Part shown: in pieces, positions 7,951 to 15,569 of the stretch
Numbering within the stretch: position 1 is the stretch's first letter
Layout of the letters: each line of letters starts with the position of its first letter
IMG/VR virus record: IMGVR_UViG_3300029567_000333
Coordinates: 1 to 22,230 of that record
From: a virus
Taxonomy: Duplodnaviria > Heunggongvirae > Uroviricota > Caudoviricetes
Strand: one strand, 5' to 3'
DNA: 22,230 bases
Notes under the pieces: generated by a model
Databases searched by the model: none
The model's input: only the letters and a program-made list of their open reading frames with translations
Told to the model about the DNA's origin: nothing
Made by a program: the position numbers and the translations under genes

Positions 7951-8967
7951 TTAATACAGATGAACAGAAGGCGGTAATTCTTTATTCTTAAGCCTTATCC
8001 ATGCAGAAAGATTTGTTGGTCCGTCTGGCTCATTGATATCAACATCTCGTGTGTGGTTGATTAAAACGTCTCTCGCCGTTCCGATAACATACGAGAACTC
8101 ATGACCGTAGTCGTAGCATCTGCCGGAATAGTTCGATTGAATTTGTTTTAATGCCGGATACAGTTCGCGGAATAATGCCTGTGAGCGGTTGGCATAATCC
8201 CATAACCATACAAGGCTGTTTGCTTCTTTTGCGGAAAGCTCGTTGGTGCTCTTCTCTTGTTTGCTAATGAACTCACCTTCAAGTGGAACTCGAGCTGCAA
8301 GTGACAGTGCTTCGGTAAACTGCTCCTCACTGATTTCTTTGTACGAACATCCAAAATGGGATTTCAGTGACGACCACATGGTGATCATCGCCTTCGCCTG
8401 TTTTTCTTTTGGCAGAGACTGACCGCGACTCATGACAAGTTGTTTAATGGCTTCCTGCTGTTCAGTGGTGATTTTGCCCGGCAACGCCTTTTTAGCTTTG
8501 CGCGGGTTAACCACATGGCCTTTAGTCCAGTAGTCATGCAGCACAGTAAAGCATTCTTCCTGGTACTGAATCAGTTTATCGCGGATGTCAGCACGAACTT
8601 TCTCAGGGTTGATGCTGAACAGCCATCCATTTAACTTCTTCAAAGGAAGGCAGAGTAGCTTACGAAGCTTCCCATCAGCAGCAACCATATTCATATGAAT
8701 ACAGTTGAACTTATCTAGTTGTTTCATAAGTTTTTGTTGCTGAGTACCCCAGCTCATTCCGAGGTTTTCAACGATTGGCTTCATCGCAACATATGCAACT
8801 CCTGCAGCCATGGCGGTGATAATTTGCTGACCGTTGAAGGGTACGTAAGAGGTGTTCACTGCTTCTAAAATTGCTATACTATTCATATCAGTTTTCTCGT
8901 AGTTAACTGGTAATTTAGAAGCCTCAATGGTTGCAGCCATTGGGGCTTCGCTGTTTTTAGCGACCAT
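7951..8967 (-). CDS. ant: antirepressor (Ant-like)
   Basis: N-terminal region ([37 protein letters not shown]...[16 protein letters not shown]) has the shape of phage antirepressor N-terminal domains. Lies directly 3' of an Arc-like gene and divergent from an Mnt-like gene, as in P22 immI. ATG at 8967 has a GAGGTGG Shine-Dalgarno and overlaps the arc-like stop by 11 nt. A start at 8886 is also possible. Confidence 0.65.
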
Positions 8968-9130
8968 TCGCCACCTCTTCCCTAACACCTTTTGCCAGCA
9001 AACGAACAATTGCAGAGTTCAGAGATATACAGTCCATTTCCGCCAGGCGGCGAAGGTCTTCATTCAGCCGTGATGGAAGGCGAAGGTTGAGTTTGATATT
9101 TTTGCGCTCAGTGAAAAGTGTATCTTGCAT
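8957..9130 (-). CDS. arc: Arc-like ribbon-helix-helix repressor (57 aa, missed by the ORF track)
   Basis: Translation [57 protein letters not shown] has the beta-strand plus two helices layout of the Arc/MetJ family. AAGGAG Shine-Dalgarno 9 nt before the ATG at 9130. Confidence 0.7.
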
Positions 9131-9236
9131 TATCTAATCTCCTTTATTTGGTGCCAAAGTGACGCCATGAAGGCCATAATGCCACCATTGAAATCGTATG
9201 GCAATATGGCACCATGGTTTTTTTGAGAGATTTGCA
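9131..9236. promoter_or_regulatory. divergent promoter/operator region between the arc-ant and mnt-like genes
   Basis: Minus strand: TTGCCA (9204-9199), 17-nt spacer, CATTAT (9181-9176). Plus strand: CATAAT at 9175-9180, so the two -10 hexamers overlap. Dense GCCAT/ATGGC and GGTGCCA/TGGCACC inverted motifs are candidate operator half-sites. Confidence 0.45.
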
Positions 9237-9557
9237 ATGGCCGAAAAACAAGTAAAAGACTACGACAAGTTCAACCTCCGTTTTCCTGACGGAATGCGAG
9301 ATGCTATAGCTGAACGAGCTAAACGTAACGGCAGATCAATGAACTCAGAGATTGTGCAGATACTGGAAGATGCCTTGAATGCAGAAAATACTCTTGGGGA
9401 AATAGCAGACAAAATCAACAGCGTCTCGGTTCCGCTAAATGTTGATGCGCTAGTTCAACTTCAAGCCCAGGTTATCGCCATGCAAAAAGAAATACAGGAA
9501 AAGTTCAGAGAGCAAAACGAAAAGTTAAGAGAACTGCTAAACAAAAAACCCACCTGA
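9237..9557 (+). CDS. mnt: Mnt-like ribbon-helix-helix repressor
   Basis: FNLRFPDGMRDAIAERAKRNGRSMNSEIVQILEDAL closely matches the Mnt/Arc DNA-binding region as I recall it (FNFRMP...EANGRSMNSELLQIVQDAL in P22 Mnt). C-terminal half is heptad-like and coiled-coil-prone. Start taken at the ATG at 9237 (GAGAGA Shine-Dalgarno); the longer N-terminus from 9198 has none. Confidence 0.85.
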   Translation: MAEKQVKDYDKFNLRFPDGMRDAIAERAKRNGRSMNSEIVQILEDALNAENTLGEIADKINSVSVPLNVDALVQLQAQVIAMQKEIQEKFREQNEKLRELLNKKPT

Positions 9558-9570
9558 CGGTGGGTTTTTC
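9543..9570. terminator. bidirectional rho-independent terminator between convergent genes
   Basis: A-run (9543-9548), CCCACC-tgac-GGTGGG stem-loop, then TTTTT (9565-9569). The mnt-like stop TGA lies in the loop, and the convergent minus-strand gene ends at 9571. Confidence 0.75.
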
Positions 9571-10563
9571 TTATTCTTTATCTTTTAAGTCGATGGTTCT
9601 TTGTCCAATAACCTTTTCATCTATGTATTTCTCATACTCTTCTCGAGTATCAGAAACCATTGCAATACCAGTAACCTTACCTATTTGGGTTCTAAGAGCT
9701 TTAACTCCAACCTCTGATAAAAACTGGTGTATTTTATCGTTTTTGCTGCCTTTCTCTTCTTTTGACGTTTTTGCTAAATTAAATACCTTTCCTTCACTTC
9801 TGGCTAATGGGTAGTAAATGTGATCTATCGTAAGATATTTAAACGCCCACGGTCGCCCTCTAACTGGTTTGTCTATACCATACAGACGATACCAATGCTC
9901 ATAAAGTTCAGGGGTGAACTCTCTTTCATACTCACGAGCCTCTTCAGCAACATATCGCTTATATGCTTGAATTACTTCTTCTTTTGTTCTGTCATACCCT
10001 GCCAAAGCATAAACAAGCCCCTGAATTCCCGCCTTGGCTGATGCATCAATAATTATCCTGGCTTGCTTAGCAATCCCTTCCTGACTAGAAAGCAACTTAC
10101 CTTCAGCTTTAGCGTTAGAGATTGCTCGACATAAATCAATTAAGATTGTTACATCGTAGCCATGTATTACAGGGTTAGCTGGTGTGTTCGTGCCCACCTG
10201 TTTGTATTGAAAAATAAGAGGATTTTCAAGTTTTGCCCTTAATTCATGCCCGATATACTGAGAAATAGTTTTCCCCTGAATAAACTTTGGCAACCTGCTG
10301 CCACCTTCGCCAAGACCAATCGCTTCTCCCATGCCTCTCTGGCTAATAACGGCAGTTTTGTTATCATCATTTAACACATAGCACTCAACATCAATCCCGA
10401 ATTCATGCTGGAACGATCCCTTATGCGTAGCAATTAATGGTTTATCCTTCCATCTTGCAGCCGCTGCTTTCTTTGCTATTTCAGAACGCTGCTCTTTAGT
10501 CAGCGACTTTGCGCGAGCGATTCCGCCCTTAGCTTTCCCTTCACCACTTTTCTTTTCAGTCAT
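9571..10563 (-). CDS. hypothetical protein, possibly P63C-domain-like; function unknown
   Basis: 330 aa from the ATG at 10563, which has an AAGGTG Shine-Dalgarno 8 nt upstream. Basic N-terminus (KKSGEGKAKGGIARAKSLTKEQRSEIAKKAAAARWK). The gene is visibly more AT-rich than the structural genes. The P63C resemblance is from memory and unverified. Confidence 0.45.
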   Translation of the reverse strand: MTEKKSGEGKAKGGIARAKSLTKEQRSEIAKKAAAARWKDKPLIATHKGSFQHEFGIDVECYVLNDDNKTAVISQRGMGEAIGLGEGGSRLPKFIQGKTISQYIGHELRAKLENPLIFQYKQVGTNTPANPVIHGYDVTILIDLCRAISNAKAEGKLLSSQEGIAKQARIIIDASAKAGIQGLVYALAGYDRTKEEVIQAYKRYVAEEAREYEREFTPELYEHWYRLYGIDKPVRGRPWAFKYLTIDHIYYPLARSEGKVFNLAKTSKEEKGSKNDKIHQFLSEVGVKALRTQIGKVTGIAMVSDTREEYEKYIDEKVIGQRTIDLKDKE

Positions 10564-10564
10564 A

Positions 10565-10654
10565 ATGCAAGCACCTTTGCTGTGATATATGCTTGCATTA
10601 TATGCACTGTACCCACATACAAGCAAGCATAAAACAAAAGCAAAATGCTTGCAT
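10565..10654. promoter_or_regulatory. array of four 10-bp near-palindromes ATGC(W)(W)GCAT with a putative promoter
   Basis: ATGCAAGCAc at 10565-10574, ATGCTTGCAT at 10589-10598, aaGCAAGCAT at 10621-10630, ATGCTTGCAT at 10645-10654, giving two units of inverted half-sites 24 bp apart. On the minus strand a perfect TATAAT (10602-10597) with a weak TTGCTT -35 lies among them, and the repeats overlap the -35, the transcription start and the Shine-Dalgarno. Confidence 0.55.
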
Positions 10655-10771
10655 TGCAACCGCACTACTCCAACTACACAGTATCATCTGGTATCCTGCG
10701 TAAAACCGAGTGTTGCGTGCTTTTGCTTAAGTTAACGGATACAAACATAGGAAACGTTACAAGGGGAAAGA

Positions 10772-11230
10772 ATGAAATCCAGATTTTTCACAATAGCAAT
10801 ATTTTCTTCCGTTCTTCTATCACTCGCAGCTTATGCTGCATCCGACAAAGATAAGGAAAAAATGATGTCTTTAATAAAAGATGCTTCTCCTTATGTTGCA
10901 GGCATGGGCAAAAGCATTGATGAAGTTTGTCAGGATATGGCTAACGACATGGTAAAAAAGTATGGAAATCAACTTAGTGCTATTGGCAAGTCACCGTCAG
11001 ATATACGAGATTCATCGTATGGTATATGCTTTGACGCTGCATCTTCAGCATCATTATCGCAATCCATAGAAGAAGTAAGCATGTGGAAAAATGCAGCAAT
11101 GCAAAACATTAACGCCACATTCCGAGGCGAGAATGAGCAATCTCCCGCGCGAAAATTTCTCGTTGAGACAATTGATCACTCTGAGAAAATGGCAAAAACA
11201 ATTGCATTCATGCGGGAAATTAGTCAATAG
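10772..11230 (+). CDS. small secreted (periplasmic) protein of unknown function
   Basis: N-terminal signal peptide (MKSR, hydrophobic core FFTIAIFSSVLLSLAA, AYA-AS cleavage motif) with no lipobox cysteine. Two Cys in the mature part. AAGGGGA Shine-Dalgarno. AT-rich. Converges on the tape measure gene with an 8-nt gap. Confidence 0.65.
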   Translation: MKSRFFTIAIFSSVLLSLAAYAASDKDKEKMMSLIKDASPYVAGMGKSIDEVCQDMANDMVKKYGNQLSAIGKSPSDIRDSSYGICFDAASSASLSQSIEEVSMWKNAAMQNINATFRGENEQSPARKFLVETIDHSEKMAKTIAFMREISQ

Positions 11231-11238
11231 CAAATCTG

Positions 11239-13014
11239 CTAAGGCACTGCACTTGAAAATGCCTGATTTACTGATGATCTGCGATTCAACTCCTTAAATC
11301 CTTCGGTTAGTTTTGAGGATTGATCCGTTTTGGCAATTACCTTTACCTCTCCTATGTGCTGGCTGTTGTAATTGTTAACAACGCTTTGGGTATAGGATTG
11401 ATTTGCAGATCCATTAGCCAATCTTTGCTGAGTTTGGTAGTAAGCGGCATTGCTATTTTTCGTTGGGTTACCATAATCAAGACCCCGCTTCCAATCTGGA
11501 TAACCTTCATGCCTAGCCATATAGGCGCTAAGTTTTGCCATAACCTCTGGATCTGAGAGGTTTAGCTTATCATTGGCACCAACGCCCATAGACTTAGAAA
11601 CCTGGTCAATATACGCCTTTGTGTTGTTTTCTGAGGATGGTGCCCACTTGCTTATTATTCCTTGCAACGTATCAAGCTTATCTCTTTTGTAGTATAGAGT
11701 CAGTTGATTCCTGGCGGCCTCCCAACCCTCTTCTGGGTCGAAGTATTGAGCAAATCCGTCTTTGTCTCTTCTTCTGTTTCCAGTAGCTTTAAGATTTAAT
11801 GGGTTATTGTTTCTGTCAGGCCTGTTGACACCATTTTTGTTAGGAGGAATCTCTTTATTTGGATCGTCATAATCCAGCCCAATGAGCCTTTCAAGCCAAT
11901 GCTGCTGAAATGCGAATGGCCGCATCTCATCAGGAACATCTTTATACTGGTCTTGTACCATCTGCCCAAAAATACCAACAGCACCGATTAATCCCAGCTT
12001 GCTTCCTAACCCCTTGCCGCTAAGAAGAGCCATGGCAGCAAGAATGCCCAATGCGTTTCCAGCGCCACCAACGGCTTTAACAAAACCATCAATACCTGTA
12101 CTCAGGTTCCTGAAGAACCCAACAATGTCACCCTTGTTGTTTTTCAGCCACTCTAAAAACTCCTGTTCAGCTTTAAGCACTTCAGGGCCAAATGTAGCCA
12201 TTAATTCTTGTTTAACCTGAGCAAATTGCGAGTCAAGGGCTTTAGTCGTAGCAAGAATGTTGCGCTGTGCTTCTTCCTGCTCTTTGGTCATCTGCCATCG
12301 TTTTTCTTCCTCAGATACCATCTGCACAGCTTTTCCGCTTTTAATATCCCCGGCAAGATTAGGGTCATAACCAAAAGCAGAAAGCACTTGCATTAACTGT
12401 TTCTCGTTATGGTTCTTCCCATATTTCTGAAATTCCGCCAGAGCATCTTCTGATTTACCTCCAAGCTTACTAATATCAATGCCTGTTCTCGCTCCAGTTG
12501 TTAGTAAATTCTGAGCCTCCGGTGTAAGTCCGCCGAAAATTGTTGGGTCTTCTATATTGGCAAGCGCCATCCTGGCGCTCATCTGTGCCCCAAGGAACGC
12601 GCCGCCGTTCTGACCAATTCGGGAGAATCCATACTGAGTACCAAGAACGTTACTGGCGCTTGTTCCAAGCATTCTCCCCATATTACTGGCTCTTACAATT
12701 GACTCCGAAGTACTTTCAAATGCACGATGAATGCCAATGGCTACGGCAGTCAACACACCGCCAACAGCCACAAAGCGTGTCGAAAGCCCCAAAAAACCAT
12801 TAAATGAAGCAGTCAACCCTTTCATTGCAACAGCAGCTTTGTCGGTCTCCTTAGCCGTTTTGGACATCGAGGAGGTTGTTGACCTTTCTATCGCAGATGA
12901 AGATCTCTCTATTTCGTTTTTAAGGTCTTGTGCTTCCTGCTTTACTTTCCGTTTTCCATTCAGGAATTCATCGGCCTTAATTGTGACCTTGTAGGCCAAC
13001 TCATTGATAATCAT
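11239..13014 (-). CDS. tail tape measure protein
   Basis: 591 aa, directly downstream of the chaperone pair. Gly/Ala-rich hydrophobic segments (AVGGVLTAVAIGI, GGAGNALGILAAMALLSGKGLGSKLGLIGAVGIFG) and a charged coiled-coil-like stretch. C-terminal region (NNNPLNLKATG...YFDPEEGWEAARNQL...) looks like a separate globular domain of unknown identity. Confidence 0.7.
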   Translation of the reverse strand: MIINELAYKVTIKADEFLNGKRKVKQEAQDLKNEIERSSSAIERSTTSSMSKTAKETDKAAVAMKGLTASFNGFLGLSTRFVAVGGVLTAVAIGIHRAFESTSESIVRASNMGRMLGTSASNVLGTQYGFSRIGQNGGAFLGAQMSARMALANIEDPTIFGGLTPEAQNLLTTGARTGIDISKLGGKSEDALAEFQKYGKNHNEKQLMQVLSAFGYDPNLAGDIKSGKAVQMVSEEEKRWQMTKEQEEAQRNILATTKALDSQFAQVKQELMATFGPEVLKAEQEFLEWLKNNKGDIVGFFRNLSTGIDGFVKAVGGAGNALGILAAMALLSGKGLGSKLGLIGAVGIFGQMVQDQYKDVPDEMRPFAFQQHWLERLIGLDYDDPNKEIPPNKNGVNRPDRNNNPLNLKATGNRRRDKDGFAQYFDPEEGWEAARNQLTLYYKRDKLDTLQGIISKWAPSSENNTKAYIDQVSKSMGVGANDKLNLSDPEVMAKLSAYMARHEGYPDWKRGLDYGNPTKNSNAAYYQTQQRLANGSANQSYTQSVVNNYNSQHIGEVKVIAKTDQSSKLTEGFKELNRRSSVNQAFSSAVP

Positions 13015-13229
13015 CGCTGCTCCTGATGTTTATTCCAGACCCGCTTGTTAAATGATTCCACCGAGATAATTTCCAGAAGGTTATACATATCACGAACAGA
13101 TAACCTTTCCTGCAAATCGGTATAAGTGGCTTTTCCTGAACAGATAATGGCGTTCATTGATGGTGTGACGTTTACGGGGCTAACGAGTTTTGCCGGAAGA
13201 GTCTCCTCCTCCATGAACGGGTACTTCAC
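13011..13229 (-). CDS. tail assembly chaperone, T-like extension ORF (probably expressed as a frameshift fusion)
   Basis: 72-codon ORF in the -1 frame relative to the upstream chaperone gene. No convincing Shine-Dalgarno of its own. The -1 frame is open from the slippery site into this ORF. Confidence 0.55.
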   Translation of the reverse strand: MKYPFMEEETLPAKLVSPVNVTPSMNAIICSGKATYTDLQERLSVRDMYNLLEIISVESFNKRVWNKHQEQR

Positions 13230-13633
13230 TCTCCGGCGATCGTTAAAAAATCAAAATTGACTTTAAATACCTTATCCATTACCTGACGAATGGTTGATAC
13301 CTCTTCAAAGTCGACAGGCTTCACGGTTCGCACCTGTCTGCTGCCTTCGTGTGTAATCACAATTTGCACAGTTGACATCAGGCGATCACGAAGTTTTCTG
13401 GCGACTTCCGGCGATGCAGCAGAAATAACATTCAGACCAAGGGTGGCAAGGCCAGCACACCCCATGGCAATCACATCAGCAGGAATACCAGAGAATCCCG
13501 ATTCCCCCATGGAGCGGAATAAATCCTGTGCCAGTTCGTCGGCATCCCATGCCGACATCTCTGTGATAATGAACTCCTTCCCATTGTCGCGATTATCGTC
13601 TTCCACGATAAAGGAGATTTCTTTACGTGCCAT
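13226..13633 (-). CDS. tail assembly chaperone (lambda G-like)
   Basis: 135 aa, between the tube and tape measure genes, with a slippery heptamer near its 3' end. Confidence 0.6.
   Translation of the reverse strand: MARKEISFIVEDDNRDNGKEFIITEMSAWDADELAQDLFRSMGESGFSGIPADVIAMGCAGLATLGLNVISAASPEVARKLRDRLMSTVQIVITHEGSRQVRTVKPVDFEEVSTIRQVMDKVFKVNFDFLTIAGE
13244..13250 (-). other. candidate -1 programmed ribosomal frameshift site (T TTT TTA)
   Basis: On the minus strand the heptamer TTTTTTA lies in the zero frame as gaT TTT TTA, six codons before the stop of the 135-aa gene. A -1 slip reads AAC GAT CGC CGG AGA GTG... straight into the 72-aa ORF. Confidence 0.55.
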
Positions 13634-14067
13634 CAGATAGTGCTCCGTGTTACAGACTCAAAGTGAAATACTGCCGGGCGTGGTTGCAGTACGCGCCGAC
13701 CCGGAGGGGTTGGAGTCCATGTATAAAGAACCCCGTTCACAAAATTCCACTTCGCGCCGAGAGCCGGAACTGTAAGCACCGCATTACACTGAAACGCTGA
13801 AATTGCGGTTCTCTCCGCTGCATACCAGTCATCAATCAGCGAGCCAGCATTGGATGTGGGCATCAGGTTGATGGTGAACTCTGTCGGGTTAAAGATAAAA
13901 CCAGCATGGTATTTACCGTCCGCTGACATCATGTCTTCTTTGTTCTGTAACGCACCAGTTTCAAACATGTTATCAGCTGCGTAGTCGTCAACATCAAAAC
14001 CGCCAGGGTAGTAAGCGGGTACGACGATTCGCAGCTTACTGTTTGCCGAGGTAATATCGATAGGCAT
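13633..14067 (-). CDS. tail tube protein
   Basis: 144 aa, immediately 3' of the sheath-sized gene and 5' of the chaperone pair. Positional call. Confidence 0.6.
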   Translation of the reverse strand: MPIDITSANSKLRIVVPAYYPGGFDVDDYAADNMFETGALQNKEDMMSADGKYHAGFIFNPTEFTINLMPTSNAGSLIDDWYAAERTAISAFQCNAVLTVPALGAKWNFVNGVLYTWTPTPPGRRVLQPRPAVFHFESVTRSTI

Positions 14068-14078
14068 GATTTATTCCC

Positions 14079-15569
14079 TTATAAAATCGCGGTTGAGGAC
14101 ATCGTGATGGACTGAATAAGTTGCCCATCGACATAATAAAAAATGACACCTTTCAGGTCGCGCTCAATGCGTGCAGAGCCTGACTGTGTCGGGATGTACA
14201 GGAACCAGCCCTGTGAATACAGCGTCGATGAGATATCTTTTCCAACTGTGTTATTCACAATTCTGGTTTGCGCATTATCAAGTTTCACGCCGCGCTGAAT
14301 AGCCCCGAAATTGAGAGCCTGTTCAGCAACATCAATAACAGCAGCAGAAACTGCGCCGTATCCTGTCTCATTGAACGGGTAAGACTGGTTATTGGTGAAC
14401 AGGTTGGCAAAAGCACTAACCAGATTGGCATTAATCCATACCTGATTAATAAAACTGTCCAGCCATACAAACTTTCCAGTAATGGCACCATCAGATGCGT
14501 ACTGCGCCATTGTTTTGTTCAGGCTGTATGATCCGTAGAAGTTGTAACCGTTTGACTTCAGTGCCTGAGCGGTCGCCAGATCTCTGACGTTGGGTGCTAA
14601 CCCTGAAAATCCACGGAACTTGAACGAGATACGCCCATTGGTGCGTGCAAAATCCACGGATGCAGCATATGCCAGTGCTGTAACGCTATACAGGTATGTT
14701 CCGTACACCGGAAAAATGTTCTCGTAGCCATTTGCCACAACCACTTTCTGCACAAAGCAATTGGCATTATTTGCTACCGTTCCTGCTGAGGTGGTGTCGT
14801 GAACAACATATCCAAACCGGTTTTTACTGCTGCTTGCCCATGCGCACAATTCTGTTTTCTGGTCATCGGTCAGTTCGACCAGCGAGTTAAACAGGATCCA
14901 GTTCTGGTTGACGTTGATGATGTTGTTCATCGTGTCTGTCAGCGTTACCGCATCAGAACCCGGTGATACAATCGCTGCGGAATCCTGCGTCAGTAACAAC
15001 CCGGTAGCCAGAGCGCCAGCAGAAGCATAAGACACTTCACTCTCTGCGCCAGTAGTGGCAGAGCGAATGATGAATCGGTTAGCGATTGGCAACCATTCAA
15101 CCACCACCTTGCTTGCACCAATTCCAACCTGCAACTTGGACGCAATGTCACTAAAACTTGTGGCTGTGGACAAATCAATTGATGTGCTGGTAGTCGACTC
15201 ACCGTCAATGGAAAGGGTGATTGTTCCTGCTGGAATCGCTTTCAGTGTTGCCAGGGCAACACCTTTCAGGTTGCCGGACAGAAGATACCCAGCCACTGGT
15301 GAAGTAACAATACGATACATCAGCAGTTCACCAGGAATAACGGATGAGTTTTCGTAGCCGTTAAAATACTGTTGTGCGGCGAGGAATTCTTTCGATTCAC
15401 TCCCCATCAAAGCTGATACATCAGATGAGGAGTAATAAGATTGTACCGCGCCAACCGGGATAAGCTCGTTATCGGTCAACATCAGGCCGTTAGCATCAAC
15501 CGCAGAACCGGCAGGCGTAACGACATTGGGCGTGATATTAAAATCTACAGATAAAGGGATTGTGCTCAT
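14079..15569 (-). CDS. tail sheath protein
   Basis: 496 aa, upstream of the tube gene. Size and position match a contractile-tail sheath. Confidence 0.65.
   Translation of the reverse strand: MSTIPLSVDFNITPNVVTPAGSAVDANGLMLTDNELIPVGAVQSYYSSSDVSALMGSESKEFLAAQQYFNGYENSSVIPGELLMYRIVTSPVAGYLLSGNLKGVALATLKAIPAGTITLSIDGESTTSTSIDLSTATSFSDIASKLQVGIGASKVVVEWLPIANRFIIRSATTGAESEVSYASAGALATGLLLTQDSAAIVSPGSDAVTLTDTMNNIINVNQNWILFNSLVELTDDQKTELCAWASSSKNRFGYVVHDTTSAGTVANNANCFVQKVVVANGYENIFPVYGTYLYSVTALAYAASVDFARTNGRISFKFRGFSGLAPNVRDLATAQALKSNGYNFYGSYSLNKTMAQYASDGAITGKFVWLDSFINQVWINANLVSAFANLFTNNQSYPFNETGYGAVSAAVIDVAEQALNFGAIQRGVKLDNAQTRIVNNTVGKDISSTLYSQGWFLYIPTQSGSARIERDLKGVIFYYVDGQLIQSITMSSTAIL

Follow-up and report, generated by a model that had tools for sequence, protein, structure and literature searches.

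The window analysed here is a stretch of 22,230 nt, IMGVR_UViG_3300029567_000333, with a tail chaperone locus on its minus strand. The locus belongs to a contractile-tailed E. coli prophage that is related to Gofduovirus phages. On the minus strand the genes run in the order sheath (DUF3383), tube (PF22764), chaperone G, T ORF and tape-measure-like gene. The features of the region are as follows:

14079..15569, minus strand: tail sheath gene, 496 aa (Pfam DUF3383/E217_gp31, E 1e-106; phrog_205 "tail sheath", E 1e-102).
13633..14067, minus strand: tail tube gene, 144 aa, immediately following the sheath (Pfam PF22764 E217_Gp32, E 5.5e-17).
13226..13633, minus strand: G, short tail assembly chaperone, 135 aa by standard decoding (phrog_1932 "tail assembly chaperone", E 1.3e-51, full length).
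13251..13253, minus strand: TGA in the −1 frame, abutting the 5′ side of the heptamer, read directly from the sequence.
13244..13250, minus strand: slippery heptamer T TTT TTA (mRNA U UUU UUA), in phase gaT TTT TTA over G codons 128–130, read from the sequence and from its invariance in relatives.
13192..13237, minus strand: candidate hairpin of 10 bp plus one bulge, 6 nt 3′ of the heptamer (minimum-energy fold).
13011..13244, minus strand: T segment, 77 codons plus stop in the −1 frame, with base 13244 read twice (open frame in relatives; phrog_3976, E 1e-15).
complement(join(13244..13633, 13011..13244)), minus strand: conceptual GT fusion, 207 aa (130 + 77), which aligns with single-frame relatives across the junction.
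11239..13014, minus strand: 591-aa protein resembling tape measures, its C-terminal part lytic (matches to phrog_2276 "tail length tape measure protein", phrog_2013 "lytic tail protein", phrog_873).

The stop codon of the tube gene overlaps the start of G (TGATG), and the stop of T overlaps the start of the tape-measure-like gene (ATGA). In the related Pbunavirus Pa193, the 150-aa protein encoded after the sheath is the tube. The RefSeq name of the tube gene is "phage tail fiber protein", a label that is probably a naming carry-over. We found an SLT domain in the tape-measure homologues of L069, one of the related loci, and of Edwardsiella phage Edno5. At ~1.5 Å per residue, tape measures of 568–591 aa agree with the measured tails of Edno5 and GF-2 (75–82 nm).

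The preliminary description of this DNA had assigned the chaperone gene to the conserved position between tail tube and tape measure genes, and both the gene order and the phrog_1932 match bear this out. The phrog_1932 annotation is itself inferred rather than experimental. Against Pfam Phage_TAC_15 (PF21822), G scored 20.2 bits (E 9e-4), for a cut-off of 22 bits, and a metagenomic relative (P0018) has a precomputed PF21822 match that is marked "faint". The AlphaFold model of G (pLDDT 71, moderate confidence) matched BFVD predicted structures labelled as tail assembly or tape measure chaperones, with E-values from 3.9e-5 to 1e-1. A fold search of the PDB for a solved structure gave no significant match (best E 0.87), so the comparison of the G fold is with predicted viral structures only, and a family-profile sequence search of the PDB came back empty. 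We also considered G as a homologue of the Pa193 post-tube proteins (gp34, a helical bundle, and gp35, the sheath initiator) and rejected this, given the lack of a fold match to those solved baseplate structures and the different gene order.

The −1 frame is open from offset 383, and the 0-frame stop of G (TGA, 13228–13226) lies 22 nt downstream of the start of this permissive interval, giving an overlap of 22 nt. Because the −1-frame TGA abuts the heptamer on its 5′ side and the G stop lies downstream, a productive shift is confined to the 22-nt interval. The sole slippery site within it is the T TTT TTA heptamer. Its location at 13250–13244, six codons before the stop of the 135-aa gene, is as first described, with Phe129 at 13249–13247 and Leu130 at 13246–13244. 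After a −1 slip the reading is AAC GAT CGC CGG AGA GTG ..., and the first stop encountered is the TGA at 13013–13011. The earlier claim that this frame runs without stops into a 72-codon ORF thus holds, and the listed 72-aa ORF (13229–13011) is part of the open −1 frame. The proposed fusion also stands, but its length is 207 aa (130 + 77) and not about 208.

Copies of TTTTTTA in the window number 10, against 7.0 ± 2.7 expected, so the motif alone is not unusual. The combination of an in-phase X XXY YYZ motif within the overlap and a −1 extension that runs for 50 codons or more was found in one of the 37 window ORFs of at least 100 aa, namely G. The 20 nt that precede the heptamer show no Shine-Dalgarno-like stimulator of the dnaX type.

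We compared the locus with 41 non-redundant relatives that share 61–79% DNA identity with the window and come from Edwardsiella and Vibrio phages and enterobacterial prophages. In addition, 66 complete related loci were examined for the heptamer and the frame. The preliminary description had made its proposal depend on conservation of the heptamer in related phages, and we found the heptamer kept, and the −1 frame open, in 66 of 66 loci. Among the 41 representatives it is invariant save for one TTTTTTG. The Phe129 codon is TTT in all 41, whereas other invariant Phe columns are ~68% TTC, and Leu130 is encoded by TTA in 40 of 41, compared with ~4% TTA in other invariant Leu columns. The base before TTT TTA is T in every representative, although the codon to which it belongs encodes D, G, N or S. 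Synonymous sites adjoining the heptamer vary freely. The pattern points to selection on the heptamer at the nucleotide level, over and above the constraint set by the protein sequence.

The T segment matches PHROG and database families. In T codons 6–29, past the G stop, diversity is 0.57 at the third codon position versus 0.27 at position 1 and 0.14 at position 2, a coding signature. Conservation of the T protein begins at the third codon after the slip, with R-[RS]-R-V-K-Y-P-F, upstream of every candidate start. Within the overlap R-[RS]-R is kept via five codon combinations, and the 0 frame varies there (A/G, G/A/E and E/A/G). In a library search with the fusion, 0-frame homologues stop at residue ~130 and the matches to T are separate small ORFs.

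More distant relatives have slippery or poly-T motifs at the homologous place. T TTT TTA occurs in L071, a distant one that shares 40% identity with the in-frame protein P0018, a T5 run in L072, T_TTT in Klebsiella ST15-VIM1phi2.1 and G GGT TTT in Burkholderia PE067. There are also relatives that encode G and T in one frame. The metagenomic 210-aa protein P0018 shares 52% identity with GT over 100% coverage, and its gene, as assembled (ERZ28575314 scaffold_1438), has T9 at the slip site. In Ralstonia phage PQ43W the same G–T junction lies in one frame, and a 191-aa protein aligns with GT across it (pairwise E 1e-12).

A search for secondary structure 3′ of the heptamer, as had been proposed, yielded a candidate hairpin at a distance of 6 nt, in the window's clade only. 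Its 5′ arm (13237–13228) reaches as far as the U of the G stop codon and its 3′ arm spans 13202–13192. Its predicted energy, −18.8 kcal/mol, places it in the top 2% for stability of the 55-nt windows of the G–T region, although the fold of the 86-nt region is no more stable than that of shuffled sequences (z −0.71). For 31 of the 41 representatives the fold includes a similar stem, which the Edwardsiella/Vibrio clade lacks. Pairing is found in 81% of cells, versus 26–56% in slid controls. RNAalifold on 24 sequences gave seven core pairs, two of them with compensatory changes, a covariation signal that is confounded by the two overlapping coding frames. With all 41 representatives it returned no consensus structure, as the stem is confined to one clade and has a bulge whose place varies. 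A permissive Rfam scan of 12800–13800 returned no frameshift element or other RNA family. The hairpin is suggestive only, as a candidate stimulator in the window's clade.

From the architecture of the locus, its conservation and its coding signature, all of which are read directly from the sequences, we strongly infer a programmed −1 ribosomal frameshift; such a shift very probably operates in the tail assembly chaperone gene of this contractile-tailed E. coli prophage. Other routes to a T product have to be weighed against it.

RNA polymerase might stutter on the T6 run and add one U, producing a subset of mRNA in which G and T are in frame and the junction reads ...DFF-NDRRR. The motif is a homopolymer, an inserted U gives an identical downstream frame, and poly-T motifs recur in other myovirus chaperone genes. 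The T9 relative, with G and T in frame, also fits this explanation, and the comparative data do not separate ribosomal from polymerase slippage on T6. However, known cases of efficient slippage by E. coli RNA polymerase use runs of ~8–9 or more, for which six T's are short, and the T6 run is never longer in the 66 loci. The Burkholderia PE067 site is a classical ribosomal heptamer with only four T's, and the 6-nt spacing of the hairpin in the window's clade is typical of ribosomal stimulators. Moreover, the closely similar slip site of P2 in E. coli, TTTTTTG, is reported as a translational frameshift (PMC3091744). We consider polymerase slippage improbable here.

T might also be a separate small protein, made by termination-reinitiation at GTG 13229 or by initiation at ATG 13214 (the RefSeq start, giving 67 aa), in which case the fusion would be unneeded. 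In the window the GTG start of the 72-aa ORF shares bases with the G stop (GTGA), as is typical of translationally coupled genes, and RefSeq and other gene callers list separate ORFs of 48–73 aa. Neither start has a Shine-Dalgarno sequence at a working distance, however: GGAG lies 1 nt upstream of GTG 13229, too near for a normal ribosome-binding site, and ATG 13214 has none at 5–10 nt. This agrees with the earlier statement that the 72-codon ORF lacks its own ribosome-binding site. Nor are the starts conserved, since T codon 6 is GTA or GTC, a non-start, in 37 of the 41 representatives, only about half of them have the ATG at codon 11, and in L023, L037 and L042 no start codon is available before codon 53 of 77. 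On these grounds we rejected independent initiation of the 72-aa ORF as a general mechanism. A separate T would also leave the invariant heptamer unexplained, and it is at odds with the in-frame G–T proteins of relatives, with the protein conservation ahead of the candidate starts and with the synonymous −1-frame changes in the overlap. We give it little credence as the general route, and some free T could still arise by reinitiation in the window's own prophage.

That the heptamer and open −1 frame are coincidental and the downstream ORF untranslated is close to inconceivable: TTTTTTA is not over-represented in the window, but the heptamer stays the same where synonymous sites around it change freely, all 66 loci have an open −1 frame, and the T segments have a coding signature, amino-acid conservation and matches to PHROG and database families.

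Under the programmed ribosomal frameshift, most ribosomes would read ...GAU UUU UUA ACG AUC GCC GGA GAG UGA and release the 135-aa G. A minority would slip when the P site has tRNA-Phe on UUU and the A site has tRNA-Leu on UUA. The two tRNAs would re-pair one base upstream, on UUU UUU, and decoding would resume with AAC GAU CGC CGG AGA GUG..., yielding the 207-aa GT, which consists of the first 130 residues of G and a 77-residue helical T domain. In the window's clade the hairpin 6 nt past the heptamer would probably make the ribosome pause and raise the slip rate. U UUU UUA does not rank with the heptamers that slip efficiently in reporter assays in E. coli (Sharma 2014; Atkins 2016). From the weakness of the U_UU.A motif in E. 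coli and the precedent of lambda, we infer a slip efficiency of perhaps a few percent. A chaperone function of G and GT is suggested by analogy. As with G/GT of lambda and E/E+E′ of P2, the tape measure protein would be coated by G and by the G part of GT, the T domain would bring in the tube protein for polymerisation of a tail of the correct length, and neither G nor GT would end up in the virion.

The sequence features by which the G/GT class is recognised (Xu, Hendrix & Duda 2004) are present at the locus, namely the gene position, a −1 overlap lacking a conserved start, an in-phase slippery site and conservation beyond protein need. The class is further marked by a short and a long product with a common N-terminus, made in a fixed ratio, needed to assemble the tail and missing from the virion, as would be expected of G and GT. 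We regard the locus, on sequence grounds, as an unannotated addition to the class known from lambda (G/GT) and P2 (E/E+E′). The Pfam scan of G at E ≤ 0.01 returned Phage_TAC_15 alone, with no P2 gpE family and no sequence similarity to P2 gpE or lambda gpG, and the resemblance of G to P2 E and lambda G is one of proposed mechanism and of gene position, with no detectable homology.

Lambda is a siphovirus, and its slippery site is G GGA AAG. As is proposed for the locus described here, it has an abundant short chaperone and a rare frameshift-extended form just upstream of the tape measure gene, and its T domain is produced solely in fused form (Levin, Hendrix & Casjens 1993; Xu et al. 2013, 2014). 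In the functional model for lambda given in review, the tape measure is bound by G and the tail tube protein by T (Atkins 2016). P2 is, like the window's element, a contractile-tailed temperate E. coli phage, in which the gene pair lies between the tube and tape measure genes and the fusion has the N-terminus of the short protein (Christie et al. 2002; Xu, Hendrix & Duda 2004). The P2 products are 91 and 142 aa, versus 135 and 207 aa here, and the P2 site is reported without a downstream structure (PMC3091744), in contrast to the candidate hairpin in the window's clade. The P2 frameshift was shown by experiment, whereas that of the window is predicted from sequence.

A −1 frameshift between TAC-N and TAC-NC has been predicted in Pakpunavirus and related myoviruses (phage Adele, PMC12846349). 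There too, a downstream "hypothetical" ORF is inferred to be the C-terminal part of the long chaperone isoform and the −1 frame is always open across divergent genomes, but these are lytic Pseudomonas phages of another family and their motif is GTTTTT, not a full X XXY YYZ. Two chaperone isoforms are also made without recoding, from two genes, in T4-like phages (Vladimirov et al. 2022, as cited in the PRFect paper) and in Ralstonia PQ43W, where the long form is colinear with the window's GT across the junction.

The chaperone and a 48–73-aa "hypothetical protein" are listed as separate genes in RefSeq/GenBank for E. coli, Citrobacter, Cronobacter, Salmonella, Yersinia and Enterobacter, for Edwardsiella phages Edno5 and GF-2 and for Vibrio phage IKEMa6-1, and the Edno5 paper makes no mention of a frameshift. 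Correcting these annotations to a 207-aa fusion would improve gene calls, proteomics databases and the training sets of frameshift predictors. The biology is ordinary and leaves concepts unchanged, and the value of the finding lies mainly in annotation.

It is conceivable, though rather unlikely, that each lineage tunes its frameshift level with its own, interchangeable device at the homologous site: the weak U6A heptamer plus a stop-codon hairpin in the window's clade, the heptamer alone in Edwardsiella/Vibrio and G GGU UUU in Burkholderia. The T9 gene of P0018 would then perhaps be inverted, with GT as the in-frame default and short G made via polymerase slippage, and in the window's E. coli prophage the GTGA overlap might add free T by reinitiation, for three products instead of two. 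The locus would add one more independent lineage to the case for a near-universal two-isoform chaperone in long-tailed phages, and its relatives, with their different slip signals at a single homologous position, form a natural set for comparison in reporters.

TTTTTTA lies at 13250-13244 on the minus strand in the phase gaT TTT TTA, and its two full codons encode Phe129 and Leu130 of G, the 135-aa tail assembly chaperone ORF. The G stop (TGA, 13228-13226) follows six codons past Leu130, so that both the position and the phase of the slippery heptamer given in the preliminary description agree with the sequence. After a step of one base back at 13244, the -1 frame reads AAC GAT CGC CGG AGA GTG AAG TAC and continues without stops, as had been described, into the 72-codon ORF and up to a TGA at 13013-13011. 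We refer to the -1-frame segment as T and to the conceptual fusion as GT; the fusion holds, with its length corrected from about 208 to 207 aa (130 + 77). A detail overlooked earlier is a -1-frame TGA (13253-13251) that abuts the heptamer on its 5′ side. Any productive shift is thus confined to the 22 nt between this stop and the G stop, where the heptamer is the sole slippery sequence. TTTTTTA occurs ten times in the window (7.0 ± 2.7 in shuffles), and the heptamer is special by position and phase, not as a bare motif. The two strands together carry 37 ORFs of 100 aa or more, and of these only G has an in-phase X XXY YYZ inside the overlap and a -1 extension of at least 50 codons. The arrangement is very probably explained by a tandem -1 slip: tRNA-Phe and tRNA-Leu would slip together on U UUU UUA, yielding a minor 207-aa GT alongside the major 135-aa G.

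The surrounding genes form a tail module, all on the minus strand:

15569-14079, minus: sheath gene, 496 aa (DUF3383/E217_gp31, E 1e-106; phrog_205, "tail sheath")
14067-13633, minus: tube gene, 144 aa (PF22764, E217_Gp32)
13633-13226, minus: G, 135 aa (phrog_1932, "tail assembly chaperone", full length, E 1.3e-51)
13229-13011, minus: 72-aa ORF, part of T (phrog_3976, function not known)
13014-11239, minus: 591-aa ORF (PHROGs for tape-measure, lytic-tail-protein and transglycosylase)

This order places the chaperone before the tape measure, as had been proposed. Neighboring genes overlap (TGATG for tube/G and ATGA for T/tape measure) as they do in translationally coupled operons. G scores 20.2 bits against Pfam Phage_TAC_15, slightly under the 22-bit threshold. 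An AlphaFold model of GT has moderate confidence (pLDDT 71; about 80 for the G part and about 60 for the T part, which is helical) and matches BFVD predicted structures named tail assembly or tape measure chaperones (best E 3.9e-5); no significant match was found among solved structures. The window is a prophage of E. coli with 99% identity to strain WS4437A-1, for which RefSeq lists G and a 67-aa ORF from ATG 13214 as two hypothetical proteins, with no ribosomal slippage annotated. The protein encoded at 13633-14067 is identified as the tube by its position and its E217 gp32 homology; RefSeq calls it "phage tail fiber protein," and Pfam describes its family as "Tail fiber protein gp32." This label is probably a propagated naming error.

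Related modules were taken from the Edwardsiella phages Edno5 and GF-2 (genus Gofduovirus) and Vibrio phage IKEMa6-1 (67-70% DNA identity), and an IMG/VR scan added 64 further loci. Lack of conservation of the heptamer would, according to the preliminary description, have refuted its proposal, but conservation is borne out: all 66 loci with complete sequence carry TTTTTT[A/G] at the corresponding site and a -1 frame open to the T stop. For 41 representatives (below 97% identity to one another, 61%-79% similarity to the window), the Phe129 codon is always TTT, while TTC accounts for about 68% at the five other invariant Phe columns. The Leu130 codon is TTA in 40 and TTG in one, against about 4% TTA at other invariant Leu columns. 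The base 5′ of the run is T in 41/41, within codons for Asp, Gly, Asn or Ser (GAT, GGT, AAT, AGT, TCT). These patterns clearly point to nucleotide-level selection on the heptamer. Conservation of the T protein begins at its third codon (R-[RS]-R-V-K-Y/F-P-F...). Within the overlap, the -1 frame retains R-[RS]-R via five codon combinations while the zero frame varies (A/G, G/A/E, E/A/G), and past the G stop (codons 6-29) nucleotide diversity in the -1 frame is 0.27, 0.14 and 0.57 at positions 1, 2 and 3.

G and T share one reading frame in two relatives. One is P0018, a metagenomic protein of 210 aa (52% identity, full coverage) from locus L069, in which T9 replaces T6A at the junction (L069 4392-4402, ENA ERZ28575314 scaffold_1438, AG TTTTTTTTT C), joining G and T in one ORF. 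Removal of one T would bring back a G-like ending (FFSIGDESNIPS and stop), and the T9 may come from an assembly error in the homopolymer or be a genuine variant with the long form as default. The other is gp5 of Ralstonia phage PQ43W (191 aa, L074 1738-2313), whose pairwise alignment to the conceptual GT is colinear and spans the junction (E 1e-12). Directly after gp5 lies a 134-aa gene (L074 2310-2714) annotated "tail assembly chaperone"; the long and short forms are thus two genes, with no recoding. When 1.8 billion representative proteins were searched, the zero-frame homologues matched GT only to residue 129-133, and T matches were separate small ORFs.

In other distant relatives the homologous site appears to remain slippery while its sequence changes. 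L071, 40% identical to P0018, keeps T TTT TTA; L072 has GAT TTT TCC, Klebsiella phage ST15-VIM1phi2.1 has GCT TTT GTA, and in Burkholderia phage PE067 a different, classical heptamer, G GGT TTT, sits one codon upstream (L075 2878-2884). All four carry a T-like domain in the -1 frame. The presumed slip site of ST15-VIM1phi2.1 (L073 2950-2960) contains just a T_TTT tetramer; this phage also has a Rha-family regulator gene between its tube and chaperone genes (L073 1864-2421) and 200 nt without annotation ahead of its tape measure gene. Two genes of the PE067 record are evidently misannotated: the homologue of the sheath gene is called "cobalamin biosynthesis protein," and that of the tube gene is called "two-component system response regulator."

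RNA polymerase slippage, inserting one U on the T6 run, would give the same frame and is compatible with the comparative data. However, the run is short, with no extension in any of the 66 loci, and G GGT TTT in PE067 points to the ribosome, making this explanation improbable. Similarly improbable is a free T produced by reinitiation, which in this prophage could use the GTGA overlap or else ATG 13214. It cannot be the conserved mechanism: just 4 of the 41 representatives have GTG as T codon 6 (37 have GTA or GTC), codon 11 is ATG in about half, and the earliest ATG, GTG or TTG comes only at codon 53 of 77 in L023, L037 and L042. Since T start codons are not conserved, gene callers report T homologues of 48, 58, 65, 66, 67, 71, 72 and 73 aa. 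Coincidence of the heptamer and the open frame is effectively excluded.

Six nt 3′ of the heptamer, a stem of 10 bp with one bulge is predicted (13237-13228 with 13202-13192). With an energy of -18.8 kcal/mol, it ranks in the top 2% by stability for 55-nt windows across the G-T region. The fold listing gives a comparable stem in 31 of the 41 representatives, including altered sequences in two divergent ones (L055, GGCGGCG/CGCCGC; L056, GGCGG/CCGCC), and none in the Edwardsiella/Vibrio clade. In pair counts, 81% of cells were paired versus 26-56% in slid controls. RNAalifold on 24 stem-bearing sequences recovered a core of seven pairs, of which two show compensatory changes, and predicted no structure on all 41; the 86-nt segment as a whole is no more stable than shuffles, and a permissive Rfam scan of 12800-13800 gave no match. 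Because its stretch codes in two frames, we regard the stem as a plausible, clade-specific candidate stimulator, not an established element.

Frameshift efficiency is probably low, as E. coli reporter assays show U_UU.A to be a weak motif (Sharma 2014) and U_UUU_UUA is far less shift-prone than A_AAA_AAG (Atkins 2016). This would fit the low GT:G ratio required in lambda, where G:GT is 30:1 (Atkins 2016). In the same host, P2 uses the near-identical TTTTTTG (PMC3091744).

A mixed-strand block (7951-11230), resembling a P22 immI-type region set within the tail module, splits the tail operon and separates the tape-measure-like gene from the baseplate genes:

7951-9009, minus: P22AR-type antirepressor-like ORF
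9198-9557, plus: Arc-like ORF
9571-10665, minus: P63C-domain ORF
10772-11230, plus: 152-aa ORF with a signal-peptide-like N-terminus

Edno5 and GF-2 have Arc and Ant genes at the corresponding place. A minus-strand ORF close to the window's left end contains 22 consecutive N (1352-1373, masked or unresolved).

The module shows all sequence-level features of the Xu-Hendrix-Duda class and would work like lambda G/GT and P2 E/E+E′, although a Pfam scan detected no sequence homology of the window proteins to P2 E or lambda G. A similar in silico inference, with a poly-T motif, was recently published for Pakpunavirus chaperones (PMC12846349). For Gofduovirus-like phages, we found no mention of a frameshift in the literature and no frameshift annotation in database records. 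Unannotated in this phage group and of a known class, the G/GT frameshift proposed here is, in our view, correct, ordinary biology that is useful to annotation.
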